Part shown: piece after piece, positions 1 to 63,410 of the stretch | Numbering within the stretch: position 1 is the first letter of the stretch | How the letters are laid out: every line of letters starts with the position of its first letter | NCBI GenBank assembly: GCA_002071085.1 | Contig: MWEM01000010.1 | Coordinates: forward strand, 2,047 to 66,046 | Direction: 5' to 3' | Source: Thermotogota bacterium ADurb.Bin062 | GTDB taxonomy: Bacteria > Thermotogota > Thermotogae > MWEM01 | Length of the DNA: 64,000 nucleotides | Notes under the pieces: model-generated | Seen by the model: only the letters and a program-made list of their open reading frames with translations | Told to the model about the DNA's origin: nothing | Databases searched by the model: none | Made by a program: the position numbers and the translations under genes

Positions 1-3000
1 CTGGTTGAAAAACTCGAGTTCAGAAGCGGGTAAGCGCTCAGGGGCGAATAGATCCCGGAAATTGCCTCCGGGGGGATCCAACAGGTCTTTCACGTCCTGA
101 TACGTCAGGCTCCAGACGTAAAAGTTGCCGCTCCTTAAAACGGCCATGCGTTTGTTCAGATCGTCTGCGAGACGGTTTCGGTGATAGCTGAACCCGTCGG
201 TATAGATCACGATGGGTAAAAATTGCTCGTCCGAGTCAGGATCGCGCGGGTAGATCACGAAATCCGCGCGCGTTGGTAAGAAGACGCCGTCTTTCTCGGA
301 AAGGAAGGTCTGCGCCGCGATAAAATATCGGTTCTTTCCTATCTGTAGGGTGAACCCTTGGCTTCCGTGGTCGATATCTTCGTAGAGCTCTATCGGCCGT
401 TCCGGAGACGAAGCTTTTTTCAACGCCTCCAAAAACATACGTTCGAGTTCGCTTTCCATCAACGCTCCGGTGTCGATCTCGTTGATCGTTGGGATTGCCA
501 CGAGATGTTCCCGATTGTTCAAGAGGCCCGAGAGGATGTCTATTGCCACTTTTTTAGAGATCGACCCCAGATACCGGCTTTGCTTGTACGCGAACAGACA
601 GCGGTAACATCCGTCGCGCTTGGGTTGGCTGGCGCATTCACACTTGACGAGTACCCGCAGGCACTTATCGAGCATATCGAAGATGGCGTCCGGCGTTTTG
701 CTCAGGTGCTTCAAATACCCCGTGCCTCCCGGTACCGAGTCGTAAAGGACGAGATAGTTTTTCCGATACTCGTTTCCCGGCGCCGGTTCTTCGGTAACGG
801 TCGCTTTCAGATGCTCCACGCTGCCAAAGGTTTCTTTCAGTCCTAACATAACCGCCGCGATGAACGTTTGCTTCACAGTCTCGTTCCACTCGAGGGTCGT
901 CGCGGGGATCAGAATCCGCAGGACCTCGGACTGGAACTCCCGGTAGAGATACACTTTCTGCTCGTAATTGTCAGGATTGGCGTCTCCTGCGGCCGAGCAG
1001 AAAGGGTAATGTTTTCGTTTCTTTTTTTTCGCGAGGCCCTCAGACTGGACCATCCCACAAGATCGGCAGATCCTGAAGCCGTTCCGTTCTTCGCTTCTTC
1101 CGGCGACCATCAAAGACTCGCTTCCGTTGCCCTGTCCGCCAAAGTTGATTTCGCGCAGCGTGGCCTTTCTCACGAATTCGAAACCGAAGGGTTTTTCCAC
1201 ATTCGCCAGCCAATAGGCTTTCAAAACATCTTTGGAGGCGTCCACATCCACGTACAGGTTCCTTCTGAAAAAGGTTTTTTCACGATCGTCGCTCTCGTCG
1301 CCGCTAAAGCTCCTGTCATATTCCTCGGAAGCGAAGACCTGCCGCAGCTTCAACATCGTTCGAACCTGCCCGATGTCCGCCCAAGCGCGGCTGCCGCACC
1401 GTGGGCAACTGCCCGTATGCTCCACGGCGCTGCTCAGTTCCGCGTGCGAACAGTTCGGGCACAGCCGCCACTCCGCTGGTTTCGAAACGCGCGTGTCGAT
1501 CTGGTCGATCACAATTTTCCGGCCCTCGGAGTAGAAGGTGTTTTCGGGCGCGAACTCGGCGATCGCGGAAGCGGCGGGGCGCATATATTCATAAACATAG
1601 TGCTCGTATTTTTTCGTTTCATCGGGCTCGCTGTCATACTCTCGGTTTTTTCCCAATCGTCGATAGATGACCGCTTTCAGCGACACACCGGCCTCCGGGA
1701 ACGCATAGTTCGGGAGCAATCCCTCGTCGGACAGGAAGTTGTAGACGTTCTTCGCGTTGATCGCCTTCTTCACCTCAGCCAGCGCGCCGATCTCTTTTTC
1801 CAGGTCTTTCATTTCCTGCTCCCGACTCGAATCGGTGGGGAGCGCTTTAACTTTCGCGAGCTTGTTCTGGAGGGATGTGATTTGGGCCGTGATCGATTCG
1901 CGCTCAGAGCGAATATCTCTGAAACCGATCAGAATCCTACTGGAGAGGCTGCCTTCGCTCTGGTCAGAATCGTCCGCGAAGGCCTTCAGTTTGGCGATGG
2001 TCTCCTCTTCAAGCGCGGGGCCGAACAGGCTGAAAAAACCTTCGAGCAAACTCTCGCGTTCCTGCCGGATGAATCGGAGCAGATTGTGGGGGAAAACGTC
2101 CTTTTCGGGTTGGTCTATGTTCGCGAGAACGTTAGCGATCGTTTTCGGAACGCTTTGGGCGCCTTTTCTTATTTTTATCCATCGGTCGAAGCAAAAGGCG
2201 AGCAACTGACGCTCCAACACAGCGGATGCGTTGAGGAACACGGCCGGGGGTTTCACCTCGCCGGCGATCATCTCTTTCGGCTCTTCAAAGAAGTACATAT
2301 CGTGGGGAACCAAATTCGTAGCCACGAGAGACAGCGCGTTTCCGTCACGTCGGCCCGCTCGCCCGATACGTTGGAGGAATTGCGTCTGAGCCGGTGGTAC
2401 AGAGCACAGCGCCACAGACGAGAGGTCCCCGATGTCGATTCCCAGTTCCAGCGTAGGTGTGCAGGAAAGCAGGTTCACATCCCAACGTTTCTGCTCAGCG
2501 CGAGTTTTCTTGAACCGTTGCTCCACGTAGGCGCGTCGTTCGGCGCTCACCAGCGACGAATGCTCGGCCGCGTATATGCGGCGGATATCGCCGTTTTCGT
2601 ACAACCGGCGATAGAAGTCGTCCTCGAAGGGCTTTTCCGCGTAGCTGCCGGGGCATCCCGGATGGAAGCAGGGCAAGCCGAGGGCGCTCTCGAGATCGTC
2701 CCCCGGGATCGATAGGGTATGCCCGCACCGGTCACAGGCGATCCGCGCGACGTCGCCCGTCACCCTTGCGTGTTTTGGGGACAGCCCGTAAATCCGTTCG
2801 CGTTTTTGAACCTCCCGTTCCTCGAGGACCTTCGCTCTGACGAACTCCTCTAACAGCCGGGTGAAAACGGGATACACCCTTTCCATATCGAGGGCGGTGT
2901 CGCTTTCAGACGCGCCGTTCAGCGCCCGCAAAGCCCAGCGGAAATAGAGAGAACGGCGCGATAAGTCGTCAAACGCGCCCTTGTGCGACCGCTTTTGGGT

Positions 3001-5493: not shown

Positions 5494-5592
5494 ACGTCCC
5501 TCCTCTGTACGCCATATTGCGCGGCCCGGGGTTTCACGTCGCGATAGAGACGCCAAACTGTCGGCGGCAGCGCGATCCGGTATTCGGGCATT

Positions 5593-8500
5593 TTACAACC
5601 CGCGCCTCTCGAACTCACGCCAGGCGACGGCGTAATCGGTCTCGCGGTCGGCGAGGGTGAAAGGCGCGAAATAGCGCACCTCGCGTTCGAAGGGCCCGCC
5701 GGGCCGGGTATCGTCCTTCACCATCCTCGAACAGCTCTCACCGTCCTTCAGTTCCTGCAGGGCCTCCCACTCGGAGCGTTCCCGAAGCCCGACGCCGGTT
5801 AGCCCTTTGCTGTTCGTCCACACAATCCGACCCTTCCGATCATAGTAGGTGTCCTTCTCATACTGCCGCATCACAGGAAACTGGATCCGGTAGATGGAGA
5901 TCAGCTCCTCCAAGGTCAATCCCAGCGCCATCGCGGTGAGGACGTCGATTTCCACGAGCGCCTGGCGACGCGCGTAGTCGTAGCGCAACGCGTTGTGGCG
6001 CTGCCAGGTGGGGGTGAGGTTCCGGAAAAAATCCCGGTCGAGCCGCGGGTCCTCGCTCGTCCAGGTATCTTTCTGAAACCGGGGATCGAACAGTTCCTCC
6101 CACAACTCGGCATAAGGGGTCGTGAGACAGTTGAGGGTGAGGGCGCGTGGAAGCGCGTATAGAAAACGAGAGTCGTCTTCCAAATAGAACAGGTCATCGA
6201 CATTCCCGGTAGTAAAATCTTCTTTTCCGCTGGTTTTGACGAAAAAGTCACTGAGAAGGGAACAAGCCGGAACGAAAGCTTGAAGCAGGCGCCGCGGTTC
6301 CAAGAAAAAGGTAGATATCACGGTATGCACATGGGCTATATTTTTGGGTATCAACGCGGAGATGAAGGTTCTTTCTCCAAATTGGCTCAACCGCCTCCGA
6401 TGGATCATTCGGAAATAATCGGTCACAAGATCGGAACGGTTCCCCTGGTTAAGACTCCATTTCGCGGTCGGAATGCGGTTCTGGTAGAGCATTCTGTCTG
6501 GCGCCGGAACATAATTCGTTCTCGGCAGATAATCGTCGGGGAGTTCGGCGAGATCGAGAGGATCGTAATGACCCTTCTCTGTGCATATAGCCCTCGGCGT
6601 TTTGTAAAAAGGCGTTCCCACGTGAAAATGTGGGCCGGAAAGGATCAGTTCTTCCGCGGTCTTAGGAAAGATGGTCTCTCTTTTGATCGTGCCGTCCTTT
6701 TGGGCGTTGGTTTCATCCCACATTACAGTAGAGTGGTATTCGCCTTTGAGATCCCTCAGGCGATGCGGATAGGCGGCGAACTTCTTCAACACGCCGACGA
6801 TGGGTTGGGCGTGTACGGAGGGGAGTTTCGACTCCAAGGGGGGTGTCCCCTCCTCGTCGAAAAGTTGACTGAAGACCGTTAGCGCCCCTTCATCCACGTG
6901 CACGACCCTTAGATGATGACCTTTCAAGTTCCATTCATCCTGTTCGTTCTTGATTCCCTCAAGCGGTTCATCGCCTTGATGGTCGAAGGAATCATCGATC
7001 GTCTTTGGTAAAAATAGGTTGGAAAGACTGTCAAAAGATATCTCGTGAAAATTGGATTTGTAGATGTTAATCCCATATTTGACTCGGTGCCCAATTGGGA
7101 AAAGCATATATTGGTTTTGAAATTGAAAATGATACCGCAACCGCGGATAGAGCTCGCGGCGCAGCGCGCCGCCTTTCGCGTCGTCATACACCCCTTCCGG
7201 ATGGAGGAAGCCCTGGACGCCGTTTCGGTTCGCGAAGAGCCAGCTCTGCGGTAGAAAGCACTTGAACAGGTTCGACTGTGATCCTTGAAGGAGCGGGTAG
7301 TTCTGGACAGCGTTGAGGAAGCCCTTCGTCGCCTCCATCGTTTCATACTCCCGCACGTAGTCCTCGAGCAGCTCCGGCTGGCGCTCGAAACTGTCGTTCC
7401 GTAGTTTACTGACCTGATCGGCGGAGTATTTCCGGATCGCGAAGAGCGGTTCCGCGTCCGAGAGGATCCCGCCCTCCTCCCATCCCAGTTTGATCCAAGG
7501 GGGGTTCCCAAGGATGAGGTCGAAGCCTCCGCGCTCGTCGAAAACGTCGGCGAACTCCAGCTCCCAATGGAAAAAGGCGATCCGTCGCGCGACCTCGCGT
7601 ACCACGCGCAATGGCTCGAGCTTTTCGCAGAGCGCGTCCAAATCCACGAGGTCCAGGTCGGAAAAGAGCGTCTGCAACTGTTTTTCCGCGTCGTTCTCGA
7701 CGAACAGGGGTCGCTGCGCGGGCGCGGTCGGTATCAGATTCACTTCGAGGATGAGCGAGAGGTGCATCAGGAACTCCGAACGCGACGGCAACAGATCGGC
7801 CTTATCGATCGGCCAGAACCATAGCGCGCACCAATAGTCCATCGCTAACTTCAACCGGGCGTATGGGCCGGCGTTCTCCATCTTTTCGGTATGAAAGAGG
7901 CTCTCGTAGATCGCGTCCTTCTCTTTCGTCGTGTACGGACGGCGGCGCGCCTTCTCCTCGTGTCCAAAGATGGATATCGCGCTCTCGGTGAGCTCTTCGA
8001 CCTTTTTTCGCGCCTTCAGGTGTTTTTCCCAGAGGAGGTCGACCTGGTCGCTCAGCCGCTGCAACGTTTTGATCTCTTCCGCGTCGTAGGGTCGAGAGAA
8101 GTCTTTGTTCCACTCTTTGAACCGCTTGAGTTCTTCGGCTTTCAGTTTTTTGACGACCTTGTCCTCGTACGTCGCCATCGCAGGATCCGCGAGCAGGAAG
8201 TGATAGACGCTGCCCGCCGGTCTCGTCGTTTTCGGTTCCACGCGTTCGGGGGCGACGGTGTGCCACTGTTTCTCCTTCTTCTTCTCCCGAATCTGATCGG
8301 GACGGTAGACCTGTCGGCGCGCGCCGATCAGGGAATTGCCGTTCATCAGCTGCGTTCTGAACCACGGAACGTAGCCGCCCTTGTAGATCGTGTTCAGCCA
8401 GACGGAGACCTCCGCCAACTCCACGGCGATCGGGTTCAGGTCGATTCCGTAGACGTTCCGGTCTGACAGGCGCATCTTGACCTTCTGCTTTTCTTCCGCG

Positions 8501-10281: not shown

Positions 10282-10290
10282 AAGCTCCCC

Positions 10291-12504: not shown

Positions 12505-13118
12505 CTTATCGAAATAGTAAAATGGGTTATGGTTCGTCGGAATGTTGGCGCGAATACGTTGGATCCCTCGGGAGTCCAGCCGTTTGAGCGGAATGGTGAA
12601 CCGGTCCAGAGTTCTTTTTGGAGCTGGAGCATCATACTTTTCAGCGCGACGACGAGGATACGTTTCCCTTTACCGCGCGCGATCAGCTCGCTCATCAACA
12701 CGCCGGCTTCGAGCGTTTTCCCGAGGCCGACACCGTCTGCCAGCAGAATGCGTTGACGGGGCCGGGCTAAGGCGCGCTGGGCGGGCTCCAGTTGGAAATC
12801 GATCACATTCATCGCCGCTTTGTGCCCGATGCGCAAGACGTTTCCCGGCGGGGTTCGTCGACGCAGGAGGCTCTCGATGTAGAGCCGCGACTTCCTAAAC
12901 ATCGGCGACCGGTCGACAACGAACTGGGTATCAGCCGGATCGATCACGCGTATCTCCTCGAGATCGGACAGGAACGCGGCCTCCTGCCCACGCACAAAAT
13001 CGGAAACGCCCGTCACGCTTAAAATGTATTTCCTATCCGCGTTGTAATCGGCCCGCCGAACTACCCACTCCTCACCGCGTACCTGTATCCGCATACCGGG
13101 CGCGTATATCTGTGTCAT
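12501..13118 (-). CDS. SNF2-family helicase (DrmD-like), N-terminal fragment (motifs I-Ia). Reading is lost after ...LQLQKELWT at an A5/T5 homopolymer.
   Basis: Walker A LADGVGLGKTLEAG, motif Ia ILVVALKSMMLQLQKELW. Adding one base in the T5 run (12615-12619, plus strand) joins this frame to the downstream fragment and gives a continuous SNF2 protein. Confidence 0.7.
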   Translation of the reverse strand: MTQIYAPGMRIQVRGEEWVVRRADYNADRKYILSVTGVSDFVRGQEAAFLSDLEEIRVIDPADTQFVVDRSPMFRKSRLYIESLLRRRTPPGNVLRIGHKAAMNVIDFQLEPAQRALARPRQRILLADGVGLGKTLEAGVLMSELIARGKGKRILVVALKSMMLQLQKELWTGSPFRSNGWTPEGSNVFAPTFRRTITHFTISIR

Positions 13119-13170
13119 TTTGTGCCCCCCGTTTGGTTTTATTGGATGGACCTATCGAGCGTGGAACCGG

Positions 13171-15186
13171 CTATACCTTCCAGAAAGAGAAGAGCATGAA
13201 CACGATCAACGCCACCCATTGGCTCGCGAATACCATCAATTGAAAGAAGTAGGTGCGATCCATCTTTTCTTTGACGCGCTTCTCAAGGGCAGTTAGGCGG
13301 TCATCGAAGGCCTGTTGTTTCTCGGCCGTTTTCTTTTCCAGTTCATCGAGCGCGGTCAGAGCGCTCTCGAACGCGGCGGTTTTTTCGGTCAGGGTTGCGA
13401 TCGACTCGCTGTAATGGCCTTTCAGCAGCTTAGGTAGGGCTTCAACGGTTTTCTGCGTTAAAACCGCGAGGTTTCGGGAATCCTGGAGAGAGGCGTGGAC
13501 ATTTTCATCCATCTCTCTCAGGGCATCCAAAGTCTCCCGATTTCCTTCGCCAAACGACGCAATGAGGTTGCCAAGCTTGCGGTCAACCGTTGACACGAAT
13601 GCGGGATCCAGCCGTGATAAACCGGTTTTCTCATCAACGAGCGAGCGCAGGCGTGCGCCCAAGTCGCCGGTCGAATCGGCGAGGCGCTTCACCAAGTCAG
13701 AAAACTCGGCGTGCTCCGCGCGGTCGTGCTCCCGTTGATTTGCGGCCTCTTCGGCTAATTGCCGTATCGCGGTTTGAATTCCACCGCTCTCAGTATTGAT
13801 TTTGCTTGTGTTTTCGAGCAGTTCGGTGTATGTCGAGCTGATCAAATCGGCGAGTTCTTTCGTTAAGCTGGACAGCCCGGCGATTTCCGCGCGGCCGCGC
13901 TCCCGTTGATTTGTGGCATCTTCGGCTAACTGCCGTATCGCGGTTTGAATTCCACCGCTCTCTTCATAGATTTTACGCGTGTTTTCCAACAGTTCGAGCT
14001 GCGCTACGCCTGCCGATTCGGCAAGATCTTTCACCAGGCCGGACAACTCAGTGAGTTTTGCCAAGTCGTGCTCCCGTTGACTCGCGGTCTCCTCAGCTGC
14101 TTGCCGTATCGCGAGTTGAATTTCACCGCTCTCTTCGCTGATTTTGCTTGTTTTTTCGAGCGACTCGGTTTGTCTTGAGCTGGTCGATGCGGCAAGTTCC
14201 TTAACCAATCCGGCTAACTCGGCTACTTCTGTTCGATTCTGTTCCCATTGACTCGCGACCTCTTCGGATACTTTCCGTATCGCGGTTCGTATCACACCGC
14301 TTTCTTCATTGATTCTTCTTGAGTTTTCAAGCAATTCAGTGTGTGTGGAACTGATCAAATCCGCGAGTTCCTTCGCCAAGTCGGATAGCTCGGCGAGATT
14401 CGCGCAGCTGTGTTCTCGCTGTTTCGCGGCTTCCTCGGTTGCTTCGCGAATAGCGGTATGAAGCTTCTCGCTTTCCGTATTGCCCCTTCGGGCATTCTCG
14501 AGCATTTCCGCTTGCGTGGCGCCAAATGATTCCGCGAAGCCCTTCACCAAGCCGGACAGCCCGGCGATTTCCGCGCGATCGTGTTCACGTTGATAAGCGG
14601 CGCCTTCGGCTAACTGCCGTATCGCGGTTTGAATTCCACCGCTCTCTTCATAGATTTTACGCGTGTTTTCCAACAGTTCGAGCTGCGCTACGCCTGCCGA
14701 TTCGGCGAGATCTTTCACCAAGCCGGACAACTCAGCGAGTTTTGCCAAGTCGTGTTCCCGTTGATCAGTGGCCTCCTCAGCCGCTTGCCGTATCGCGGTT
14801 TGAATTCCACCGCTCTCTTCACTGATTTTGCGCGAGTTTTCAAGCAATTCAGTGTGTGTGGAACTGATCAAATCCGCGAGTTCCTTTGCCAAGTCGGCAA
14901 GCTCGGCGATATTCGCGCAGCTGCGCTCGCGCTGTTCGGCTGCGCCTTCGGTTGCTTTTTGTAACGCAGCGTGAAGTTCGCCACTTTCCGTATGGATTCT
15001 GCGCGTGTTTTCCAATAGTTCGGCGTACTTGGCGTTGAGCTCTCGGACGGACAGCGTGAACTCGTTCAAAACGGCAACGAGCTCGTTATCCGCGTTTCCC
15101 AGCGAAAAACCCTCCTCTAGCCTTCTTTCTTCGTTTCCATCGATATCATTCATTCGCGCCCTCCTTCGAGCATTTCTTCTATCCAT
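13171..15186 (-). CDS. Tail-anchored coiled-coil protein built of ~45-aa tandem repeats with a C-terminal transmembrane helix. The start is probably the ATG at 15153.
   Basis: Repetitive low-complexity sequence (...LAELSGLVKDLAESAGVAQLELLENTRKIYEESGGIQTAIRQLAE... repeated more than 6 times). C-terminal hydrophobic FFQLMVFASQWVALIVFMLFSFWKV. RBS GAAGGAGGG lies 5 nt before the ATG at 15153 and inside the 3' end of the upstream helicase gene. Confidence 0.7.
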   Translation of the reverse strand: MDRRNARRRARMNDIDGNEERRLEEGFSLGNADNELVAVLNEFTLSVRELNAKYAELLENTRRIHTESGELHAALQKATEGAAEQRERSCANIAELADLAKELADLISSTHTELLENSRKISEESGGIQTAIRQAAEEATDQREHDLAKLAELSGLVKDLAESAGVAQLELLENTRKIYEESGGIQTAIRQLAEGAAYQREHDRAEIAGLSGLVKGFAESFGATQAEMLENARRGNTESEKLHTAIREATEEAAKQREHSCANLAELSDLAKELADLISSTHTELLENSRRINEESGVIRTAIRKVSEEVASQWEQNRTEVAELAGLVKELAASTSSRQTESLEKTSKISEESGEIQLAIRQAAEETASQREHDLAKLTELSGLVKDLAESAGVAQLELLENTRKIYEESGGIQTAIRQLAEDATNQRERGRAEIAGLSSLTKELADLISSTYTELLENTSKINTESGGIQTAIRQLAEEAANQREHDRAEHAEFSDLVKRLADSTGDLGARLRSLVDEKTGLSRLDPAFVSTVDRKLGNLIASFGEGNRETLDALREMDENVHASLQDSRNLAVLTQKTVEALPKLLKGHYSESIATLTEKTAAFESALTALDELEKKTAEKQQAFDDRLTALEKRVKEKMDRTYFFQLMVFASQWVALIVFMLFSFWKV
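13748..14960. repeat. Intragenic tandem direct repeats (~135-bp unit with a 684-bp higher-order period) inside the coiled-coil gene. 13920-14032 and 14604-14716 are 100% identical over 113 bp.
   Basis: Direct comparison of the sequence lines. ttcggctaactgccgtatcgcggtttgaattccaccgctctcttcatagattttacgcgtgttttccaacagttcgagctgcgctacgcctgccgattcggc occurs twice. The sub-motif ctgccgtatcgcggtttgaattccaccgctctc recurs about 6 times. Confidence 0.9.
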
Positions 15187-18100
15187 TCTACCGCATATTT
15201 CCTCTTTAGTATCTCATGATACCTTTGGTTGGTGTAGTTACGCAAACAGCCGTAACAAGAGGAATCCCCCTCTTCGCCCCCACATAGGCAACCCTTTAAA
15301 AAGGACTCGGTAAGCTTGAGGATTCCCTCGAACGCTCCATCTTCCATACACCAGCGTATGTGACCGGCGCCCCCCGCGACGTTGTCGAACAGAAGCAAAT
15401 TCGGATACGACCTGCCCTCCACGGGAAAGACGATTCCATCGAGGTCGTTCCGGTCTATGTCCAGGAACAGGCTAACCCCCTCTAAAAGCGCGTAGAGGAT
15501 AGAAAGCCAGTATTCTTTCTCATCGTTTGTCCGTTTATTTTCCGGAGGGGTGATCTCCAATATTTCCGTTTTAAACTGGTAGCCGAGCGCTTTTCTACGG
15601 GCGATCTTTCCTGGGCACCTCTTGCCTTGAGGGTTATTGTGCTCTCTTTCCAGCGTCTTTTTGGCGTCGGAGTAACCGCAAGCCAAACAAACGTTGAACC
15701 CCCGCGGGCCGCCGGGATTGATGGTCACCAAATTGCCCAACATCGTTTTCAGGTGAACCGGATACCTCAGCAGGAGGGTTTTTTCTTCGATGGTGTACTC
15801 TTCTTTCCCGAGCAGGCAGCGCGTTTGAGAGAGCTGTGTCTTCTTTATCACACCCGCTTTCTCGGGCTGTCCGGAGATGAACCCAAACTCGGGGAAAAGG
15901 TAATCGCCAACGTTTAACTGACTGCCGCAAATCTTGCACGTCTTGGTTGTCGAGCGCTCCTTGATCGACACCTTCGAAAACCCGCATTTTCGGCAGAAGG
16001 CATAACTCTCCTCGATCAACGCCTTGTCGGGCACTTTCTTGATATACTGCGTCGACCACTTCTGCTTGTTCGCGTAGACGGGATTGTCCGGCGCATATTC
16101 CCAAAGGGCGGTTTTCATATCCCGCGAGAGCTCCAAGTCGTCCATCTTTTCGTCGAAGGGCGCCATCAATTCTATGACGTCGACCGGAAACCCGTAGCGA
16201 GGTAGAATCCCTTTTCCGGCCAGGTATTGCATGAGATTACGGCCTAAAAGGGTTTGCACCTTTCTATGGAGCGTGTCCGCTTTTCTGAAGGTTCTCTTTT
16301 TGGTCGCCGCATCGATCAAGTCCGTCAAGACCCGTATGTCTTCTTTCAATTCTTTGCCGATGTGGTAGAGAGAAGCGTGCGTAACCGGAGAATCGGAAAA
16401 CAGGAGGTACGCCCAGGGCAAAAATTGTTTTTGGCGCAGCTCGTGTTCGGTAGCAGGAATGGTCTCTCGTATCGTTTTGTCCAGCTCCTCTTGATGCGTC
16501 GCGACGAAGTGTTCGAAGCGCGCGACCCCTTCGAGGTCATCGTCCGTTTCCGGAAAAAAGAAGGCCTTCACGTCTTTGAAATGGTTCGGATACTGACGCC
16601 AATACTCGGCCAATGCGATCGCGGCCATATGACGATAGCGTATTTTCTCGTTTTCCAGCACAAAGGAAGGCGGGGCAATCTCGCCTTTAATCATTTTTTC
16701 CGGGTCGCTAAAGAAGTAACGGTCGTGAGGCCTTCGTAACGCGTAGGTGAGAATGAAAGCCGGATTGGAGGTTCTCCTGCCGGCCCGCCCTGCCCTTTGC
16801 AGGTAGTTCGACGCGGTTGGGGGCACGTTTTTGAGAAAGATCGTGTCCAAATCCCCGACGTCCACGCCTAACTCGAAGGTCGTCGAGCAGCTGAGGATCT
16901 GTATTTTTTTATGATAGAAGTCTTCTTGAAACTCCCGCGCTTTTTCATATTTAAGCTGGGCTGTGTGCTCTTCCACTCGAAGCGGGGAGAGCTCGAGCGT
17001 GCGGTACAAGTCTCGGTAGTGGTTAGGGCCTAACGCCGAAAAGTTCGTCTCCCTCACCGTCCCTTGACATCCATAAGAAGGACAGACCCCCCGTACCGCA
17101 AAAAAGAAAAGTTCTTTACACCGATCACATTGGTAAAGTTTCATATCCGGAGTCAGGAGCGGCGAAAGGATTTCCAGGGCGTCTATCTTCAATCGCTTCC
17201 CGCTTTGGTTGCGCTTTGTAAAAGAGGTTTCGAAACAGTCCCTCCAATCCGGATGGTCGAATTCTTTCCAAATCCATTGAAGTAACTCCGGGACCTCCTC
17301 CTTTCTCGCTTTTGGAAATAGGCGGCGTAAATAATCGGAGCGCGCGTTTTCGAAACGATAGGGGACCCAACTTTTCACGCCTGCTTGGGTTTGCGCCGAC
17401 AGCGTCATCAACGTTTTCAAATTCCTCGGCGCGAAAAACTCGTGTTCGGGTTCTATGTCCGGTAAGTAGGTCAAAGCGCCGCACTTTCTGAAACTGGAAA
17501 GTAAGAGTTGATACAGGCTGTGGGCCTCTTCCGGAGTCAAATTCCAAGGCGCGTTCAGGAGCGGGCTTCGCTTTTCGAGAGACTCGTAGAGTCCTTTGGA
17601 AAGAGGGACCTTGAAGCCCAGGAGCCCGGCGCCTTCGAGACCCGTGCGCCGATCGTAACTCATCGCTTCGTATTGTGTCCATAGGTAAGCGGTCGTCTCT
17701 ATTGTCTGCTTATCCATTTGGTAGTCTTCCGGGAGGCGTTTTTTGGCGAATTCCGCCAGGTTTTTGACGATCCAATCGTTCTCGATGGCCTTTTCTCGAT
17801 AGGTTTCGAGCGTGTTCACCAAAATGCGCCTCCAGAAGATCCTGTCATAACTCTCTTGAAGGTACGGCGCGAAGTACGCCGCGCCTTGGCGACTGTCCGA
17901 AAAGACGATAAAGCCGTTTTGCCGCTTCCTTTCTTCGGGAGACAGGCCGCTATACAGGTTCTGAAAGAGGGCCGTGGCGATAACGCTTCCCGAGGCGTCC
18001 GCCCCGTCTAAAAACCGCCAAAGAACGGGGGTTAGACTTGATTGCGCGCCGCAATTCAAGCACTTGTTCACGCGTCCTTCCTTCGATTTTGCCTTTTTTG

Positions 18101-19946
18101 CGGAAAGAAGAGCCACCCCGCAGTCGCAGGCGTTCCCGATCAAGTTTTCTTGAGAGACCTTCCCACATCGGGGACAGATTTGGAAAAGGTTGCGAGTATC
18201 CCGTTCTTCGGATGCCCCATCTTCTTCATCCTCATTTTCGGCAACCGCTCTGTCGGGTTCTATGAGGAGATACCAGTCGAGAAATTCGTCCCCTTCGGTT
18301 TGATCGTATTCGGTTTGTCTCAAAATCCCCGTGTCCTTGTCAACGGTCCCTGTCAAATAGACCGCCCCGCAGTTTTTACAGGACCCGATCTCGAAAAACA
18401 ACCGCTCTGTGGAAGAGTCGTCCATCTTCTCTATGGTTTTCCGTTCGAGTTGGAGGGTTTTATCCGGGTAGAAAGAGACGAAAGCGCCTTCCAAGGCCTT
18501 GAGAAATAGATGGTACTTCATAGAGGACAAGGAGGTTTGCGGAAAGAGGTGGCACACGAGGTTTATCAGTAGGACCAAATGGAAGGACAGTACTTCACGT
18601 TGCGCGTCTTTTGGAAAGAGGATTTCCGTTAGTTTGGAAAACTCACAAGGTCCGCTTTCCAATATTCGATTGACCTCTTTCACCTTCTCGTCGTTTTCGA
18701 CAATCCTCAGAAACGTGTCCGAGAGGTCGAAAGGCGCATTCGGTCCTTCCGCCCTTTTCAATGTCGGCGATCCGTCGGGATTGTGAGCGCGGTTTCCGAT
18801 GGTCTCCCCTATCCACCGGCTCAATTTCTCAGTCACCAAGGAGTTGGCTTCTCCTTTAAAATAGGCGATCAGATCGGTATAGAACTCCGGTGGGATAGTG
18901 ATTGGCCCGGCTTTGACTTGGAGCTCCCTCGGCGTGTAGGGCAATTTTTCGCCGACGATGATATCCTGACGCTCCGGATCGTTTTTGTCCCATTCGACGC
19001 GAGTGTGAAAAAGGTTTTGTGCGAATTGCGCGAGCTTCGAACACGCGTCCGGGGAATAGCCGAGAGAGGCGCTCGTGCCGAAGTATTGCAGGGCTTGGCC
19101 TTGCGCGCTTCGCCCGATACGGTGAGCGAGACGCCGCAGCAGCAACGCGGTTTCGATCCCTTTCGCGCCGCCGTAGGTGTGCACTTCGTCCAATATGAGG
19201 AACTTCCAAAAACGCGCGTGTTCTCCGTCGAAGAAAACGCAATCGTCCGGTCTCAGGAGCAGGTATTCGAGCATCGCGTAGTTGGTGATTAACAGGTGCG
19301 GCGGCGAGCCACGCATCCGAGCTCTACTGATGAGCTCGTTGGGTAAGGGGTCGTGCGCGAAAAGCCTCACGAATCGGCTCAGCGCGCTCTTTTCCTCTTG
19401 TTCGGTTTCCCCGGTATAGATGCCGAAGGTCACTTCCGGTATCCTTTTCAGAATACTGCGCAAACGAAGTAATTGATCGTTTGCCAGCGCGTTCATCGGA
19501 TACAGTAAAAGGGCTCTGACTCCGGGCGTCAACTTGGATTCTTCGATCTGCCTGAAAAGGTAATTCAAAACCGGGATCAGGAAGGATTCCGTTTTCCCGC
19601 TTCCCGTACCGGCGGAGACGATGAAGCTTTTTTTCTGCACAACCGCCTTTCTCACCGCCATTTCTTGATGCGCGTATAACGGTCGATCGGAAGGCAGCGT
19701 TTCTTGGTCGATCCTAAGGAAGATCTCGGAGAGGATTCCCTCCCGCACGAGCTCCCCGATCGATTTCCCAGTTCTATAGCGGGACAAACGTTCGATGTAG
19801 GGCCCTTTGCATAGCGCGTTTTCTTTTTCGATTTCTTCTTGGAATTTACCGTGTAGTTCCGGGTCGGAGAGGTGGAAGGTCGTCAGGAGATAACTACGGT
19901 ACTTTTCCAAGACGTCTTCGGTCATTCTTATCGGATTAATCGGCAC
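15150..19946 (-). CDS. DEAD/DEAH-box helicase fused to a C-terminal DUF1998 domain (DruE / DrmA-DrmB / YprA-MrfA family), 1598 aa.
   Basis: LYAHQEMAV, Walker A SAGTGSGKTESF, LLLYPMNALANDQ, DEVH box LILDEVHTY, GTSASL, motif VI LQRAGRAGRR (~16770-16800). DUF1998 signature VCLACGYS...CPGK...LLLFDNVAGGAGHI...CLCGG...CYGCL (15170-15800). GTG start with GGAGG 7 nt upstream. The gene overlaps the upstream gene by 11 nt. Confidence 0.85.
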   Translation of the reverse strand: MPINPIRMTEDVLEKYRSYLLTTFHLSDPELHGKFQEEIEKENALCKGPYIERLSRYRTGKSIGELVREGILSEIFLRIDQETLPSDRPLYAHQEMAVRKAVVQKKSFIVSAGTGSGKTESFLIPVLNYLFRQIEESKLTPGVRALLLYPMNALANDQLLRLRSILKRIPEVTFGIYTGETEQEEKSALSRFVRLFAHDPLPNELISRARMRGSPPHLLITNYAMLEYLLLRPDDCVFFDGEHARFWKFLILDEVHTYGGAKGIETALLLRRLAHRIGRSAQGQALQYFGTSASLGYSPDACSKLAQFAQNLFHTRVEWDKNDPERQDIIVGEKLPYTPRELQVKAGPITIPPEFYTDLIAYFKGEANSLVTEKLSRWIGETIGNRAHNPDGSPTLKRAEGPNAPFDLSDTFLRIVENDEKVKEVNRILESGPCEFSKLTEILFPKDAQREVLSFHLVLLINLVCHLFPQTSLSSMKYHLFLKALEGAFVSFYPDKTLQLERKTIEKMDDSSTERLFFEIGSCKNCGAVYLTGTVDKDTGILRQTEYDQTEGDEFLDWYLLIEPDRAVAENEDEEDGASEERDTRNLFQICPRCGKVSQENLIGNACDCGVALLSAKKAKSKEGRVNKCLNCGAQSSLTPVLWRFLDGADASGSVIATALFQNLYSGLSPEERKRQNGFIVFSDSRQGAAYFAPYLQESYDRIFWRRILVNTLETYREKAIENDWIVKNLAEFAKKRLPEDYQMDKQTIETTAYLWTQYEAMSYDRRTGLEGAGLLGFKVPLSKGLYESLEKRSPLLNAPWNLTPEEAHSLYQLLLSSFRKCGALTYLPDIEPEHEFFAPRNLKTLMTLSAQTQAGVKSWVPYRFENARSDYLRRLFPKARKEEVPELLQWIWKEFDHPDWRDCFETSFTKRNQSGKRLKIDALEILSPLLTPDMKLYQCDRCKELFFFAVRGVCPSYGCQGTVRETNFSALGPNHYRDLYRTLELSPLRVEEHTAQLKYEKAREFQEDFYHKKIQILSCSTTFELGVDVGDLDTIFLKNVPPTASNYLQRAGRAGRRTSNPAFILTYALRRPHDRYFFSDPEKMIKGEIAPPSFVLENEKIRYRHMAAIALAEYWRQYPNHFKDVKAFFFPETDDDLEGVARFEHFVATHQEELDKTIRETIPATEHELRQKQFLPWAYLLFSDSPVTHASLYHIGKELKEDIRVLTDLIDAATKKRTFRKADTLHRKVQTLLGRNLMQYLAGKGILPRYGFPVDVIELMAPFDEKMDDLELSRDMKTALWEYAPDNPVYANKQKWSTQYIKKVPDKALIEESYAFCRKCGFSKVSIKERSTTKTCKICGSQLNVGDYLFPEFGFISGQPEKAGVIKKTQLSQTRCLLGKEEYTIEEKTLLLRYPVHLKTMLGNLVTINPGGPRGFNVCLACGYSDAKKTLEREHNNPQGKRCPGKIARRKALGYQFKTEILEITPPENKRTNDEKEYWLSILYALLEGVSLFLDIDRNDLDGIVFPVEGRSYPNLLLFDNVAGGAGHIRWCMEDGAFEGILKLTESFLKGCLCGGEEGDSSCYGCLRNYTNQRYHEILKRKYAVEWIEEMLEGGRE

Positions 19947-22900
19947 GGGTCAACCTCCGGAATGCGAAGTATACCCTTTCTACGAGGATATCTTCGCGGC
20001 GATGTTTTTCTATCCAGTAGAGGAGTTTCTCGTCCACGTCATAATAGGCGCCGTCCCCTTCTTTGTCTATGAGAAACGGAAGGGTTTGATGATCTTCGTT
20101 AATGAAAAAGCGGACCGGGTTCGTATTCAGCCAATATTTTCTATAACCCTTGTCATCCAACCAGACGATATCGCCTTCGTAGGGCTCTCCCTCCTCAATC
20201 TTATCCGTGGGCCTGATATTCCGGATGACGCATTTTGGTCCGGCCAGGGCGTATTCTCGGTCTTGCTCATCGGTGACCTTGAGGATCTCCAAGCCCGCAT
20301 CCTTTGCAAATATATCATCTTTTGTGAAGGCAAGTGAAACATCGGGTTCGTGGAGACCGTGAAATTCCCGCGCGACCCGGTTACCAACAACCCATTCGAC
20401 GGTGAAAGGGCCGGAAGGAAATGCGCGCGTTTGAACCTTAAAACTGTACTCGCTCCGCCCAGCGTCAAGAAAGGCTTCGAAGTGTTTATCACCCTCAGTG
20501 GAAAGGCGCAAGCGCAGTCCGGAGGGGTTGTCTTCACGAGACCAGCGGCAATGGACGTGAGTCACCTGCGCGTCGGCATCTTCTTGGAGCGCGACTTCGG
20601 CATCCGCGAAGGGGACGCGAAAGGAAAAGGTTGCGATCGGTGGTGTCTCGGCGTATCGAAGCCCCCGTTCGTAGATAGAAAAAGATTGCTCGGCGGTCTC
20701 GCTGGCGCGTATGTTGTCGAAAAAAGGCCGCATGTCGACGCTTAATCGATCCTTCTTCACGGAGCAACGAGTGATTTGCCCCGTTTGATCGTGTCGGCAT
20801 TCGAACTGTTTTCCCCTCAAGTCGTACGGGAGTCGGAACTCTTTTTTAAGGGGATAGCCGTAGAAGATCGGGGAGTACTCGGATAGGGATTCTGAGGTGT
20901 CTTCATCGACGAAGGGCCTTTCGAATTCGCAGGAGAACGTTAATCCATCCGAGCCGGAGGGGTTGAGCGTCAGAACGGCTTGAACCGTTTGAACCCCGGG
21001 GTCTATACGACAACGGATCTCCATGCCCCCCTCTTCCGACTGGATTTCGGAAGGATCGAGCGCGGGAAAAGAAAAATGGATTTCGTCCTCCGCCTTTATT
21101 TCCAAGCGCCCCGGCGCGTGGAGGGACCTATCCTCCGAAGACCAGCGGAATCTAAACCGCGGCAGCACCCAGAAGACCATATCGATCGGAAGCCTTTTGA
21201 CCCCGAAGATAGAGATGCGATACCGACCATAAGGGGAATCGAAAAATTCCGCGGGGCATACCTCCATAGACTCGCTCGGGCTATCGCTTTCCGCGGGGTT
21301 GTTGGCGACTTGAAAGGTTGAAACGCGTGAAGGGCCTGATTCGAGAACAACCTCCATTTTCCAGGCGCCCGCATCGCCGGTGGCCGGAGGCATCCGTATC
21401 GTCGGGCAACGGAAATAGACGTTCTCTCCACGCGCCGTGACCCCTTCGACAGGACTTTCGCTGAGCTTTCCATAGAAACCGGCCCGATAAAAAGCGAGAC
21501 TTCCACCGGTCGGGCTTCTGATTTGGAAACAGTCCGTATCCGACAGATCGAGAGCGGCGTAGTCAAAATTCGGGGCTCCATACCATCGGGTTCTGTCTGA
21601 GACCGCTTCGGCCGGTGTGATTTCGTTCTCGCCGGACAGAATGAGGTAGAGGTAGTCGGTCGCATACTCACGCTTCTTCAACGCCTCCCCGTTCTCGTCG
21701 AAGACCAGTAACGGGTACTCCTCACAGAGCTGTGGTTTTATGGAAAATTCGCGGATGGGCTCTTTGCTGTTCATCAATCTGTTCACTTTAAAGGCGCGGA
21801 TTTCTAGTGTACCGAAAAACGGTGAAATTTCGCACCGTTCCCTCTGGGTTTCTATTGAGCCGCCCTGATTAAAAAGCGAACATTCCCTGACAAAGACCTC
21901 TCGGTTTGCTTTCGCTTCCACGACGGACAGAAAGATTTTTTCTTGTTCATCAATCTCATTGAGAACGATTGGGGGGATAACGAGCCACAGCCGCTCCAAA
22001 TCGAGGTCCAACTCAAGGTAGGGAGCGCTTTGCCTGGGTGTCTGAACTATGTGAGTCCGATGTTCTATTTCGCTTCTTATGCCTTTTCTCAGCCTTTTTG
22101 AGAGTAAGGGCCACCGGTCAGCTTCATCGAGAAGCGCCTTGTCGAGGCCTTCGAGCGCGCGGATATACTCGATGGTCGACCTTATAAAAATATGCGCATC
22201 GTTTCCGGATTGGGAGAGGAAACACCGTGTTCCCTCGCACAAGAACCTATTCCTTGTAGCATCCCCAGATTCTCCGAAAGGAGGTTCTGCTGAATCTCCA
22301 AAAGGAGGTTCTGCGGGAATCTCTTGGTCTGTGAATAGAGAATCCGCGAAATCGAAGAGCGCCGTTTCTGAGAGGTTCAAAGCATCGGGGTAGTGGTTTT
22401 TTATGAAATGGTACAGGGCCTTCACGACATCCCAACTGAGAGGTCCCGCGTGCTCTTCCTTCCATTCGCGTACCACCTCGAGCTTCGCGCGAAGGTCATC
22501 CAAAGAAATCGGCTTCCCCGGAGAGAGAAGGTTTCGCACGCGGTTGATCCGGCTGACGGCTTCTTTCAATACGACATATCGGTCGATCGCTCTTTGATAG
22601 GTGTCTTTCAATCGAACGAGGCGCGTCCGATGTCTGTCTTCTTCGACGAACGGCGAGTCCGCTAAAAAGACGACCAATTCTTTCTTCAACTGGTACCGGG
22701 AGAGCTCGCGCGCTTTTTCCGCCCAGCGATTCGGCAATTCCTCTTCGATCACGCGCATCATCATAGGGTTATCAAGAAATTCGGTGTAATAGGAGGTCGC
22801 CTCCGGCGCCTCTCTGTACAACATAATTAAAGGCCAGTAAGCCAATGATTTTTCCAGAGACTTACGTAACTGGGCGGTTTTCTCTCTACCCGCGATTACT

Positions 22901-23484
22901 TCAGGCTGGTAGGATTCTTTGATTTTCCGGAGTTCTTCCGCGATCTTCTCGTCGCTCACCGGTCGATCACTTTCGATCTCAGGAAAAGCCCAGCGGATAT
23001 AGCGCGCCCATTTCGGAATGTATGAGTCGGGAACGAAACTGTGAGCGAGGATGGCCACGACGAACCGAAAGCCGGTATGAGGGAAATAAAAGCCCAGCCC
23101 ATCTCGACAGGTTTTTAGGAACAATTCTCCGATTTTTTGTTCCAAAGCTACGGAGGGTGTTTGGATGTCCAGCGCTTGAAAAATCGAACTCCAAAAGTTC
23201 CCTTCTTCATAGGTTTTGGCCCCAATATGAACGAGAAAGGCGCAGAGGGTTCCCCGGTATTTGAAATCTTCGATAGGCGATCCCCGATTCAGGAATTCCT
23301 CTTTCAAGTAAGCGCTCAATTCCGGGCGAATTTCTTCCATTTCTTGGTCCGAGAAGCCTGCGAGCTCGTAATACTTACTTTTTCTCATTGCCTTATACAT
23401 TTGAAAATCAAAAAGGGTAAGCTTCGCGCTCAACGGTATCATTCCTTTCCGAGGCGATCGCGATCTACATCGATTATACATCAT
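19936..23484 (-). CDS. Large hypothetical protein (1182 aa) with no recognisable catalytic motif. It is translationally coupled to the downstream DUF1998 helicase and may be a DruH-like partner. An alternative start is at 23442.
   Basis: A long ORF with an ordinary, non-repetitive composition (not low-complexity). It overlaps the helicase gene by 11 nt. No P-loop, nuclease or methyltransferase motif found by eye. The start codon lacks a clear RBS, so the start is uncertain. Confidence 0.55.
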   Translation of the reverse strand: MMYNRCRSRSPRKGMIPLSAKLTLFDFQMYKAMRKSKYYELAGFSDQEMEEIRPELSAYLKEEFLNRGSPIEDFKYRGTLCAFLVHIGAKTYEEGNFWSSIFQALDIQTPSVALEQKIGELFLKTCRDGLGFYFPHTGFRFVVAILAHSFVPDSYIPKWARYIRWAFPEIESDRPVSDEKIAEELRKIKESYQPEVIAGREKTAQLRKSLEKSLAYWPLIMLYREAPEATSYYTEFLDNPMMMRVIEEELPNRWAEKARELSRYQLKKELVVFLADSPFVEEDRHRTRLVRLKDTYQRAIDRYVVLKEAVSRINRVRNLLSPGKPISLDDLRAKLEVVREWKEEHAGPLSWDVVKALYHFIKNHYPDALNLSETALFDFADSLFTDQEIPAEPPFGDSAEPPFGESGDATRNRFLCEGTRCFLSQSGNDAHIFIRSTIEYIRALEGLDKALLDEADRWPLLSKRLRKGIRSEIEHRTHIVQTPRQSAPYLELDLDLERLWLVIPPIVLNEIDEQEKIFLSVVEAKANREVFVRECSLFNQGGSIETQRERCEISPFFGTLEIRAFKVNRLMNSKEPIREFSIKPQLCEEYPLLVFDENGEALKKREYATDYLYLILSGENEITPAEAVSDRTRWYGAPNFDYAALDLSDTDCFQIRSPTGGSLAFYRAGFYGKLSESPVEGVTARGENVYFRCPTIRMPPATGDAGAWKMEVVLESGPSRVSTFQVANNPAESDSPSESMEVCPAEFFDSPYGRYRISIFGVKRLPIDMVFWVLPRFRFRWSSEDRSLHAPGRLEIKAEDEIHFSFPALDPSEIQSEEGGMEIRCRIDPGVQTVQAVLTLNPSGSDGLTFSCEFERPFVDEDTSESLSEYSPIFYGYPLKKEFRLPYDLRGKQFECRHDQTGQITRCSVKKDRLSVDMRPFFDNIRASETAEQSFSIYERGLRYAETPPIATFSFRVPFADAEVALQEDADAQVTHVHCRWSREDNPSGLRLRLSTEGDKHFEAFLDAGRSEYSFKVQTRAFPSGPFTVEWVVGNRVAREFHGLHEPDVSLAFTKDDIFAKDAGLEILKVTDEQDREYALAGPKCVIRNIRPTDKIEEGEPYEGDIVWLDDKGYRKYWLNTNPVRFFINEDHQTLPFLIDKEGDGAYYDVDEKLLYWIEKHRREDILVERVYFAFRRLTRAD

Positions 23485-23657
23485 TTATTCGAGTAAAGAA
23501 AGGAACGATAAACCATTCGTCACATTGAGCGGGGTTTTCCAAAGTTAGGAAATTTGTAGTGGTACGGGGGTGCGTTTGAGGGAAGACACGCAAAAAAGCC
23601 AGGTGTTCCTTTTAAAGAAAAGATAGAAAACATACCAAACGTAGGGTCGAGAGGTGG

Positions 23658-24095: not shown

Positions 24096-24147
24096 CGCAG
24101 GTTCTGTGCTATAATCTTTCCAAACACAAACAAAGCGGGTGAAAGCA

Positions 24148-25790: not shown

Positions 25791-25845
25791 GCCTTCCGCT
25801 CTATGCTATAATCTTAATCAAACACAAATAAAGCGGGTGAAAGCG

Positions 25846-63241: not shown

Positions 63242-63351
63242 CCGAAGTTTTCTCCTTTGTTTTGTGTTTATCGAAAAACGCCGCTTTTTGTTAAGGAATC
63301 GGTCTTGAGTTTTCGTATCATTATACCATAGCCTACGGCCCACACAGGATG

Positions 63352-63378: not shown

Positions 63379-63410
63379 TCAGAGACGCGCAACAAAAAGG
63401 AGGGAGGAAG

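Follow-up and report, generated by a model that had tools for sequence, protein, structure and literature searches.

ARMADA type II is a four-gene anti-phage system (armABCD) that was defined and validated in Escherichia coli (Bell et al. 2025, bioRxiv 10.1101/2025.09.15.676423; mBio 2026, PMC13463889). In that host it gives direct, non-abortive protection, which is lost unless each of the four genes, the ATPase motifs and the NPPW motif are in place (Bell et al. 2025, bioRxiv 10.1101/2025.09.15.676423). [quoted passage not shown] Druantia III-B consists of a compact DruE devoid of PLDs together with DruH (Bell et al. 2025, bioRxiv 10.1101/2025.09.15.676423; Himpich et al. 2026, bioRxiv 10.64898/2026.05.13.724758). 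The E. coli DruE works as a dimer with 3'-to-5' DNA helicase activity and is loaded at exposed ssDNA or at 3' overhangs, and the E. coli DruH, described as an N-terminal globular domain followed by an Ig/Fn3 array, binds ssDNA and is inhibited by ATP. A co-directional druHE-armABCD array, synergistic against some phages in E. coli, was published in 2025-26 and was also found annotated in an E. coli locus during the present analysis. The data on protection, helicase activity, ssDNA binding and synergy concern the E. coli homologues only, the Thermotogota locus reported here being known from its sequence.

The window analysed here is a stretch of 64,000 nucleotides from contig MWEM01000010.1 of Thermotogota bacterium ADurb.Bin062, a metagenome-assembled genome from digester-type metagenomes. 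ORF calls place six co-directional minus-strand genes in a block of 23.5 kb, which a seventh gene extends beyond the window edge:

g1: 23484..19936, minus strand; 1182 aa, partner protein labelled DruH-like
g2: 19946..15150, minus strand; 1598 aa, compact DruE-like helicase of the YprA family, matching Druantia III-B
g3: 15153 (or 15186)..13171, minus strand; 660/671 aa, tail-anchored coiled-coil protein
tandem array within g3: 13665..14850, minus strand; 6.9 copies of a 171-nt (57-aa) unit, detected with Tandem Repeats Finder
armA (g4): 10291..13118, minus strand; BrxHII/RapA-like SNF2 helicase, split into ORFs 13118..12501 and 12504..10291
armB (g5): 5593..10281, minus strand; 1562 aa, PglX-like N6-adenine DNA methyltransferase
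armC (g6): 5493..<1, minus strand; 1831 codons in the window, open at its edge, YprA-like DEAD/DUF1998 helicase
armD (seventh gene): L006:21116-23281, beyond the window edge, co-directional; 721-aa UvrD/GajB-like helicase

We consider that this block is very probably a defence island in which two separable, already-named anti-phage systems, each built around a YprA-family helicase, lie head to tail on one strand. The ORF calls bear out a preliminary description of this DNA, which had reported six large minus-strand genes separated by overlaps or gaps of at most 100 nt. The overlaps amount to 11 nt between g1 and g2 and to 4 nt (ATGA) between g2 and g3 given a g3 start at 15153, and the spacers measure 52 nt (g3 to g4), 9 nt (g4 to g5), 99 nt (g5 to g6) and 33 nt (armC to armD). 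The armD gene had been missed because it lies beyond the window edge. In the source contig, ArmC reaches a full length of 2097 aa, its last 266 aa falling outside the window, and complete armC and armD genes are present in L001-L006. No tRNA or integrase context is visible within the window.

Judged by sequence, g4-g6 and armD are ARMADA type II, a known DISARM-related system; this identification follows from full-length orthology, identical gene order and eight conserved residues. Using the Arm proteins of an annotated E. coli locus (L091) as references, BLASTP yielded 45% identity for ArmA over 953 columns (computed with the intact orthologue of L010), 46% for ArmB over 1643 columns, 36% for ArmC (1-2087 versus 1-2101) and 44% for ArmD over residues 8-719. 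The SNF2 and N6-adenine methyltransferase content noted in the preliminary description was recovered by Pfam, with SNF2-rel_dom and Helicase_C in g4 and Eco57I (6e-15) plus N6_Mtase in g5; g6 matched DEAD (7e-22), Helicase_C and MZB (3e-9), and ArmD matched UvrD families as well as the PADLOC GajB model (1.4e-37). Conserved positions include K134 (Walker A) and D234 (Walker B) of ArmA, G561 (SAM motif) and N926 of ArmB, the latter within an NPPW motif at residues 926-929, and K102 and D227 of ArmC; the mutagenesis of Bell et al. 2025 targeted eight residues, and every one of them is conserved in the orthologues of the window.

With the methyltransferase as anchor, 80 loci from many phyla were fetched, most but not all of them with enough flank. 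Every locus with enough flank carries the SNF2-methyltransferase-(insert)-helicase-UvrD arrangement, in the strict armA-armB-armC-armD order also found in E. coli. The ArmB family counts 5759 matches at E<=1e-20; within the 80 loci, its members have ArmA, ArmC and ArmD as neighbours whenever the flank suffices. The g5 protein also matches the PADLOC model REase_MTase_IIG (PDLC03614) over its full length (5e-273), while Pfam found no nuclease domain in it; the Type IIG restriction-modification label probably describes the ArmB family.

Compared with ARMADA II of E. coli (NCTC 12900, ATCC 8739, EDL933), the locus encodes the four proteins in an identical strict order, keeps the Walker A/B, SAM and NPPW residues, and has a putative nuclease-like extension of ArmC after DUF1998, an N-terminal extension of ArmD before the UvrD core, and a position immediately behind a Druantia III pair on one strand. 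It differs by its host, which is a member of the Thermotogota rather than of the Enterobacteria, by a frameshift in armA, and by an empty armB-armC junction where many other loci carry cargo. The Vsr/DUF559-like tail previously proposed for the last helicase has only indirect backing. A putative Vsr-type nuclease-like domain at about aa 1680-1800 of ArmC bears the signature E..Q..DF..DGxxxH..D..R..W, of which E, Q, DF, DG...H, D, R and W do not vary across 20 orthologues; the alignment with E. coli ArmC extends through this region, and the corresponding domain of two of the 20 orthologues matches Pfam MTES_1575 (8e-5). However, the domain encoded in the window has no Pfam match itself, PDB sequences searched with a profile gave no match, and a single-sequence AF2 model was unusable (pLDDT 41).

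The frameshift that the preliminary description had spotted in the SNF2 gene is real: at about 12604 a CCC run has lost one C, leaving CC, a 1-nt deletion that six independent assemblies (L001-L006) share and that the 97%-identical relative L010 lacks. With armA frameshifted here, and E. coli ARMADA unable to do without ArmA, this half of the island is probably inactive in the present strain. One could go further and regard the whole island as a decaying remnant that is being lost, the frameshift being a first lesion and the block being no longer protective. The lesion removes part of the RecA1 domain of ArmA and is fixed in the six assemblies, which fits such a decay; yet the remaining six genes have kept their long reading frames (up to 2097 aa) and their catalytic residues, armA is unbroken in close relatives, and the upstream module does without ArmA in other genomes. 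We hold general decay to be rather unlikely.

The upstream genes g1 and g2 form a Druantia III-B-like pair by the PADLOC DruE scores, by the absence of anything after the MZB domain and by the DruH-like plan predicted for g1, III-B being defined as a PLD-less DruE with DruH. The g2 protein matches Pfam DEAD (7e-19), Helicase_C (8e-11) and MZB, the former DUF1998 (1.3e-9), so that both DUF1998 helicases recognized in the preliminary description hold up. It scores 1.4e-170 on PADLOC DruE1 and 8.6e-154 on DruE3, and a precomputed YjiV_N match exists for it, none being listed for ArmC. Its MZB domain spans residues 1485-1568 of 1598, the protein ends 30 aa later, and Pfam detected no C-terminal nuclease or PLD domain. 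Druantia III-A was excluded for g2, which lacks the two C-terminal PLD-like domains: gene order, a YprA-type DUF1998 helicase and the position upstream of armABCD are shared, whereas the E. coli DruE has 2104 aa with both PLD domains, and DruH and g1 are unrelated at the sequence level. Identity between g2 and E. coli DruE is 27-33% over parts only, and BLASTP places g2 about equally distant from E. coli DruE and ArmC, the DruE-like assignment being based on profile scores.

Each full-length g2 homologue (37-41% identity) follows a partner of about 1300-1450 aa that is devoid of recognizable domains and shows weak but collinear similarity to g1. Such pairs occur with no ARMADA genes nearby in five genomes (Thermoanaerobacterium, Methanohalobium, Neomoorella, a Clostridiaceae MAG and Mesotoga). 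For g1 itself, no match was obtained in Pfam, PADLOC, NCBIfam or PHROGs; it has only two close homologues among 5.8e9 proteins and 62 remote ones among 1.84e9 representatives. Its AF2 model (pLDDT 73) predicts an N-terminal helical domain, a helical linker and approximately seven Ig/Fn3-like beta-sandwich domains, for which Foldseek retrieved the Ig/Fn3 arrays of cytokine receptors, fibronectin and complement proteins.

This predicted architecture fits the description of DruH. Likewise, two overlapping genes, encoding a large domain-less protein and then a YprA helicase of about 1600 aa that ends after MZB, are shared with Druantia III-B. The DruH-DruE layout claimed in the preliminary description stands as regards position, DruE scores and the predicted plan of g1, but sequence homology to DruH was not detected: g1 has no PADLOC DruH match even at E<=10, when the E. 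coli DruH control matches 10 models, none of 39 remote g1 homologues has a DruH match, and hhalign gave a g1-DruH probability of 0.4%. The label DruH-like for g1 is based on gene position and a medium-confidence model. The second departure from III-B is the coupling of g3 to druE.

The third gene was correctly depicted in the preliminary description as a tail-anchored coiled-coil repeat protein, with its 6.9 tandem units and a hydrophobic C-terminal tail (...YFFQLMVFASQWVALIVFMLFSFWKV). No family match, including in Pfam and PADLOC, was found for it. Orthologues of 603, 494 and 489 aa occupy the same position in L010, L007 and L099, respectively, where they overlap druE by 4-8 nt; their N-terminus and transmembrane tail are conserved while the middle is variable, and the copy number of the repeat varies among strains (lengths of 660, 603 and 494 aa). 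Only two further loci emerged from 241 million metagenome records scanned. On sequence grounds, g3 appears lineage-specific and translationally coupled to druE via the ATGA overlap, and from this coupling alone it probably belongs with the Druantia-like module. By analogy, g3 resembles Zorya in being membrane-anchored with a long coiled coil and in being encoded within a comparable array; Zorya type I adjoins or sits inside ARMADA II in L049 and L032. The g3 protein nevertheless shows no sequence similarity to ZorA and has no ZorB partner, its predicted single transmembrane helix is C-terminal whereas ZorA has an N-terminal MotA-like domain, and no ZorA model matches it, although the same library scores the true ZorA-D of L032 at 1e-255 or better.

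Two other readings concern how the block should be named and divided. The preliminary description saw in the last three genes a DISARM class 1 variant with DrmA and DrmB fused and a Vsr domain replacing DrmC. DISARM class 1 indeed likewise combines SNF2 and DUF1998 helicase functions with a large N6-adenine methyltransferase, which is why ARMADA is named DISARM-related; the best PADLOC and NCBIfam matches of the SNF2 gene are DrmD models (1e-65 and 1e-68), the methyltransferase matches DrmMI at 1.6e-57, and the order recalls drmD-drmMI-drmA-drmB. The DISARM-like logic of the trio survives, but its members are orthologues of ArmA-C: the two g4 halves reach 232.2 and 81.4 bits on NCBIfam DISARM_DrmD, below the cut-off of 610, and g6 scores 363 bits on DruE models versus about 55-60 bits on DrmA. 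Helicase and DUF1998 are fused in one polypeptide with no separate DrmB, a putative Vsr-type domain occupies the position of the PLD nuclease, no PLD DrmC gene or domain occurs in the block or its 10-kb flank, and the fourth gene is UvrD-like. The YprA phylogeny of Bell et al. (bioRxiv 10.1101/2025.09.15.676423) groups ARMADA with Druantia, its helicase being closer to DruE, and not with DISARM. Since full-length ArmA-D orthology explains everything better, a DISARM variant is extremely improbable.

A more serious question is whether the block is a new seven-gene composite, in which the Druantia-like pair and g3 share one operon with the ARMADA genes and their products are interdependent. All genes lie on one strand with overlaps or gaps of at most 99 nt, a tight spacing that fits a single transcription unit, and a scan revealed no convincing internal terminators or promoters. 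The g1-g2-g3-armA-armB order is kept in a second lineage whose proteins are just 50, 70, 39, 78 and 73% identical, respectively. Druantia III is synergistic with ARMADA II in E. coli, and its authors propose that DruE and ArmC may cooperate. Against this, each module is found alone in many genomes, and either system protects by itself in E. coli. The modules also differ in GC content (56-57% for the ARMADA genes as opposed to 52% for g1/g2, the remainder of the window having 51.5%), and the armA frameshift persists in the population alongside intact genes, which is more easily tolerated if the upstream module works alone. Interdependence thus seems improbable to us, and two separable modules, each occurring elsewhere without the other and differing in GC content, remain the preferred reading. 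The earlier claim of one new system does not withstand the neighbourhood comparison, in which the 80 ARMADA loci, most of them with enough flank, contain no g1, g3 or second upstream DUF1998 helicase and the five genomes with g1-g2-type pairs show the modules apart. Nor is the composite undescribed, as full-length orthologues exist and both ARMADA II and the druHE-armABCD array are already published.

Within this two-system island, ArmB would mark or read host DNA at a sequence motif, and ArmA, ArmC and ArmD would move along incoming DNA that lacks the mark, unwind it and nick or cut it. The Druantia pair would act on intermediates of replication or recombination that contain ssDNA and stem from the same phages, and g3 may keep the Druantia part at the membrane. 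What looks new is the occurrence of a III-B version in Thermotogota, how tightly the genes are packed, and the coupling to druE of a rare tail-anchored protein with 57-aa repeats; as far as we found, the literature contains no description of the interposed g3, nor of a PLD-less III-B-like DruE whose partner lacks detectable similarity to DruH. A tentative and rather doubtful extension is that g3 acts as a third component, one that would anchor the helicase of the Druantia III-B pair (and perhaps ARMADA too) in the cytoplasmic membrane at the site of phage DNA entry, through its conserved C-terminal transmembrane helix and an extensible coiled coil of 57-aa repeats. If so, the three-part defence logic would have been put together independently in the Thermotogota array.

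Six long genes occupy positions 1-23484 of the window, all on the minus strand in its ORF map. In transcription order they are:

23484..19936, minus strand: g1, DruH-like partner, 1182 aa
19946..15150, minus strand: g2, compact DruE-like helicase, 1598 aa, 11-nt overlap with g1
15153/15186..13171, minus strand: g3, tail-anchored coiled-coil protein, 660/671 aa, ATGA overlap with g2
13118..12501 and 12504..10291, minus strand: g4, SNF2 gene, split
10281..5593, minus strand: g5, 1562 aa
5493 to the window edge, minus strand: g6, 1831 open codons

The g3-g4, g4-g5 and g5-g6 gaps measure 52, 9 and 99 nt, and a promoter/terminator scan of 5000-24200 predicted fewer sites than in shuffled controls, none within the intergenic gaps, a result uninformative as to co-transcription. 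Pfam assigned DEAD, Helicase_C and MZB (formerly DUF1998) domains to g2 and g6 alike, SNF2-rel_dom and Helicase_C to g4, and Eco57I/N6_Mtase to g5. The ORF map and Pfam thus bear out the six genes and two DUF1998 helicases of the preliminary description, which had the components and their family resemblances right. Its main proposal, an undescribed composite system, did not hold: the block corresponds to a Druantia III (B-like) pair followed by ARMADA type II, both named systems whose pairing is published.

An exact-match look-up of g5 retrieved the same locus from JGI and ENA metagenome contigs (up to 240 kb) and from an NCBI MAG. In these longer contigs, g6 reaches its full length of 2097 aa and is followed 33 nt later by a co-directional gene, g7, whose 721-aa product is a UvrD-like helicase extended by about 250 aa at its N-terminus. 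ARMADA type II was defined by Bell et al. (bioRxiv 10.1101/2025.09.15.676423) as four proteins encoded in strict gene order: ArmA, a BrxHII-like helicase; ArmB, a PglX-like methyltransferase; ArmC, a YprA-like helicase whose C-terminal Vsr-type nuclease precedes inactivated EEP and Vsr domains; and ArmD, a GajB-like UvrD helicase whose N-terminus is RelE-like. In BLASTP comparisons with the E. coli proteins, g4 matched ArmA over its full length (45%), g5 matched ArmB (46%), g6 matched ArmC (36%, spanning 1-2087 versus 1-2101) and g7 matched ArmD (44%). Each of the eight positions at which mutations impaired E. coli defence is conserved. On this orthology and residue conservation, g4-g7 is assigned by sequence to ARMADA type II. 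A profile search of PDB sequences gave no match supporting a Vsr fold in the ArmC tail, and a single-sequence AF2 model of this region (pLDDT 41) was unusable.

The preliminary description had likened the order of g4-g6 to that of DISARM class 1. The top 2023 PADLOC model for g4 is indeed DrmD, but that for g6 is DruE, not DrmA, and g4 scores far under the cut-off of the NCBIfam DrmD equivalog; DISARM class 1 membership was rejected on these grounds. For g5, the top model in PADLOC-DB 2.0.0 is REase_MTase_IIG (PDLC03614), a full-length match at 5e-273. Since no nuclease domain is detectable in g5, and since ArmA, ArmC and ArmD flank the family wherever enough flanking sequence is available in the 80 loci described below, the Type IIG restriction enzyme-methyltransferase label probably mis-describes ArmB, and pipelines relying on it would miss ARMADA.

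The four-gene module is very widespread. Species-representative genomes scanned with g5 as anchor yielded at least 596 stretches encoding a relative of this methyltransferase, and the family was found by distant blastn in 526 of 5426 complete E. coli genomes. The best 80 loci, from Desulfobacterota, Cyanobacteria, Clostridia, Bacteroidota, Gammaproteobacteria, Spirochaetes and other groups, were fetched and searched with g1-g7 by tblastn; wherever the flank suffices, they display the order SNF2 gene, methyltransferase, an insert of 0 to 8.6 kb, a helicase of about 2100 aa and a UvrD helicase. Neither g1 nor g3 occurs in any of the 80, nor does a second DUF1998 helicase lie upstream.

Although ARMADA is defined by a "strict gene order", the armB-armC junction behaves as a hot spot for cargo insertion. 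Of the 55 fetched loci in which both gene ends are visible, 42 have the two genes more than 600 nt apart (8.6 kb at most), against only 99 nt in the window; one locus (L012) harbors DUF3800 and DUF559 genes at this position. In a Marinobacterium sp. MAG (L032), a complete Zorya type I operon (zorABCD; PADLOC E-values of 1e-108 down to 0) with a PIN-domain gene, at 15038-23522, is nested co-directionally inside ARMADA II, between the end of armB (14968) and the start of armC (23554). In Halopseudomonas (L049), zorABCD lies directly upstream of armA. The adjacency of Zorya and ARMADA therefore recurs outside E. coli, where one annotated locus (L091) reads zorE-zorB2-zorA2, DruH, DruE, ArmA, ArmB, ArmC, ArmD.

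Upstream of the ARMADA genes, g2 matches every PADLOC DruE model (best DruE1, 1.4e-170) and belongs to a large family (7319 matches, about 1600 aa, 37-41% identity). It stops 30 residues past the MZB domain and hence lacks a nuclease domain. Subtype III-B of Druantia pairs DruH with a compact DruE devoid of PLD domains (Bell et al.; Himpich et al., bioRxiv 10.64898/2026.05.13.724758). In Thermoanaerobacterium, Methanohalobium, Neomoorella, a Clostridiaceae MAG and Mesotoga, the related helicase is always preceded, with overlap or adjacency, by a protein of about 1300-1450 aa devoid of Pfam domains; these pairs lie in defence islands with no ARMADA genes nearby. The homology of these partners to g1 is weak yet collinear (E 1e-12 to 1e-10). 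In Thermoanaerobacterium (L092:5039-9004), the partner matches the PADLOC model C3a139, an "HKD+Snf2" CRISPR-associated candidate, with 1268 bits, and the pair adjoins a type III CRISPR-Cas cluster; the model description does not suit this domain-less protein.

The relationship of g1 itself to DruH was examined at several levels. g1 has no PADLOC match even at E<=10, whereas E. coli DruH, used as a control, matches ten DruH models, and neither NCBIfam and Pfam nor BLASTP against E. coli DruH returned a match. phmmer, run exhaustively over 1.84 billion representatives, recovered 62 remote homologues of g1; none of the 39 tested matched a PADLOC DruH model, and hhalign of the g1 family profile against E. 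coli DruH gave a probability of 0.4%. DruH homology is thus undetectable by any of these methods, and the resemblance is one of architecture only. The AF2 model of g1 (pLDDT 73) features a helical N-terminal domain predicted with confidence (about 20-200), a helical stretch predicted poorly (200-480) and a chain of beta-sandwich domains (489-1180), with cytokine-receptor Fn3/Ig arrays, fibronectin and complement MG domains as top PDB matches. E. coli DruH has been described as comprising a globular N-terminal domain, six Ig-like domains and a C-terminal domain, with Fn3 folds of the cytokine-receptor kind. We therefore consider g1 DruH-like by gene position and modelled architecture, and not demonstrably homologous.

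In the third gene, g3, a 171-nt unit is repeated in tandem 6.9 times, and the encoded protein has a hydrophobic helix at its C-terminus. Orthologue lengths are 660, 603, 494 and 489 aa, with exactly one 57-aa repeat accounting for the difference between the first two. Conservation is strong in the N-terminal 75 residues and in the transmembrane tail, but not in the middle. No family was recognised in the Pfam, PADLOC or PHROGs libraries, g3 is absent from all other Druantia-like or ARMADA loci examined, and 241 million metagenome records returned only the same two lineages. In all four loci carrying it, g3 and the druE stop codon overlap by 4-8 nt, and on this translational coupling to g2 we tentatively assign it to the Druantia module.

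Whether the block forms a single system or two was weighed on several lines of evidence. Coupling is supported by the tight spacing on a single strand, by the g1-g2-g3-armA-armB order retained in a second lineage (protein identity 39-78%) at the same chromosomal site, adjoining M48 peptidase and PAS sensor-kinase genes, and by the same druHE-armABCD order in E. coli, where synergy was shown experimentally. In favour of two separable modules, each module occurs alone in many genomes, as in the 80 armB-anchored loci and the five g2-family genomes, and Druantia III and ARMADA II each protect alone in E. coli. The ARMADA genes have a GC content of 56.4-57.4%, while g1/g2 are at about 52% and the remaining window at 51.5%, a difference suggesting that the ARMADA module came from a donor of higher GC and was acquired apart from the Druantia-like pair. 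Recent duplication as the source of the two DUF1998 helicases is ruled out, as g2 and g6 are deep paralogues (only 23-32% identical). We favour two cooperating modules over one indivisible system.

Four further features of the window concern the surroundings of the block:

24139-25440, plus strand: gene, 433 aa, no significant match in Pfam, PADLOC or PHROGs
25723-27507, plus strand: gene, 594 aa, no significant match in Pfam, PADLOC or PHROGs
55824-56936, plus strand: solitary D12-class (Dam-like) N6-adenine DNA methyltransferase
56949-63508, minus strand: AddA/AddB-type helicase-nuclease pair, beside the D12-class gene

The 433-aa and 594-aa genes sit between g1 and the M48 peptidase gene; present in the 97%-identical relative (L010) and absent from the 50% lineage (L007), they represent variable cargo at the island edge. 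No restriction gene partnering the D12-class methyltransferase is evident. The window contains no tRNA gene and PHROGs gave no significant match for g1, g3 or the upstream unassigned genes. No sign of a carrier satellite or prophage of the E. coli kind was found.

Mechanistically, E. coli ARMADA II provides direct, non-abortive defence requiring all four genes, the Walker motifs and the NPPW motif. E. coli DruE works as a dimer with 3'-to-5' helicase activity, set off by exposed ssDNA or 3' overhangs, and its PLD domains are dispensable; DruH binds ssDNA with competitive inhibition by ATP. No methylation data were found in published ARMADA work, and a literature search gave no further ARMADA study. 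ArmB may mark or recognise DNA in a motif-specific manner, and ArmA, ArmC and ArmD would process unmarked incoming DNA, the Vsr-type domain serving as nuclease. The Druantia pair would attack phage intermediates containing ssDNA, and g3 might place the machinery at the membrane.

The locus adds an independent case, from a distant phylum, in which a Druantia III-type pair lies immediately upstream of armABCD on the same strand; its Druantia subtype differs from that of E. coli. New here are the gene g3, the partner set of III-B type, Thermotogota (by source names) as host phylum, and a frameshift in g4 (armA). The latter, one C missing from a CCC run at about 12604, is common to six independent assemblies and absent from the 97%-identical relative; it probably disables the ARMADA half in this strain, offering a natural ARMADA-minus background beside intact relatives. 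g3 and the sequence-unrelated DruH-like partner give handles on the roles of non-helicase components and on the cellular site of helicase action. If both arrays arose separately, their recurrence supports a real functional coupling, for which the evidence so far was the phage-specific synergy in E. coli.
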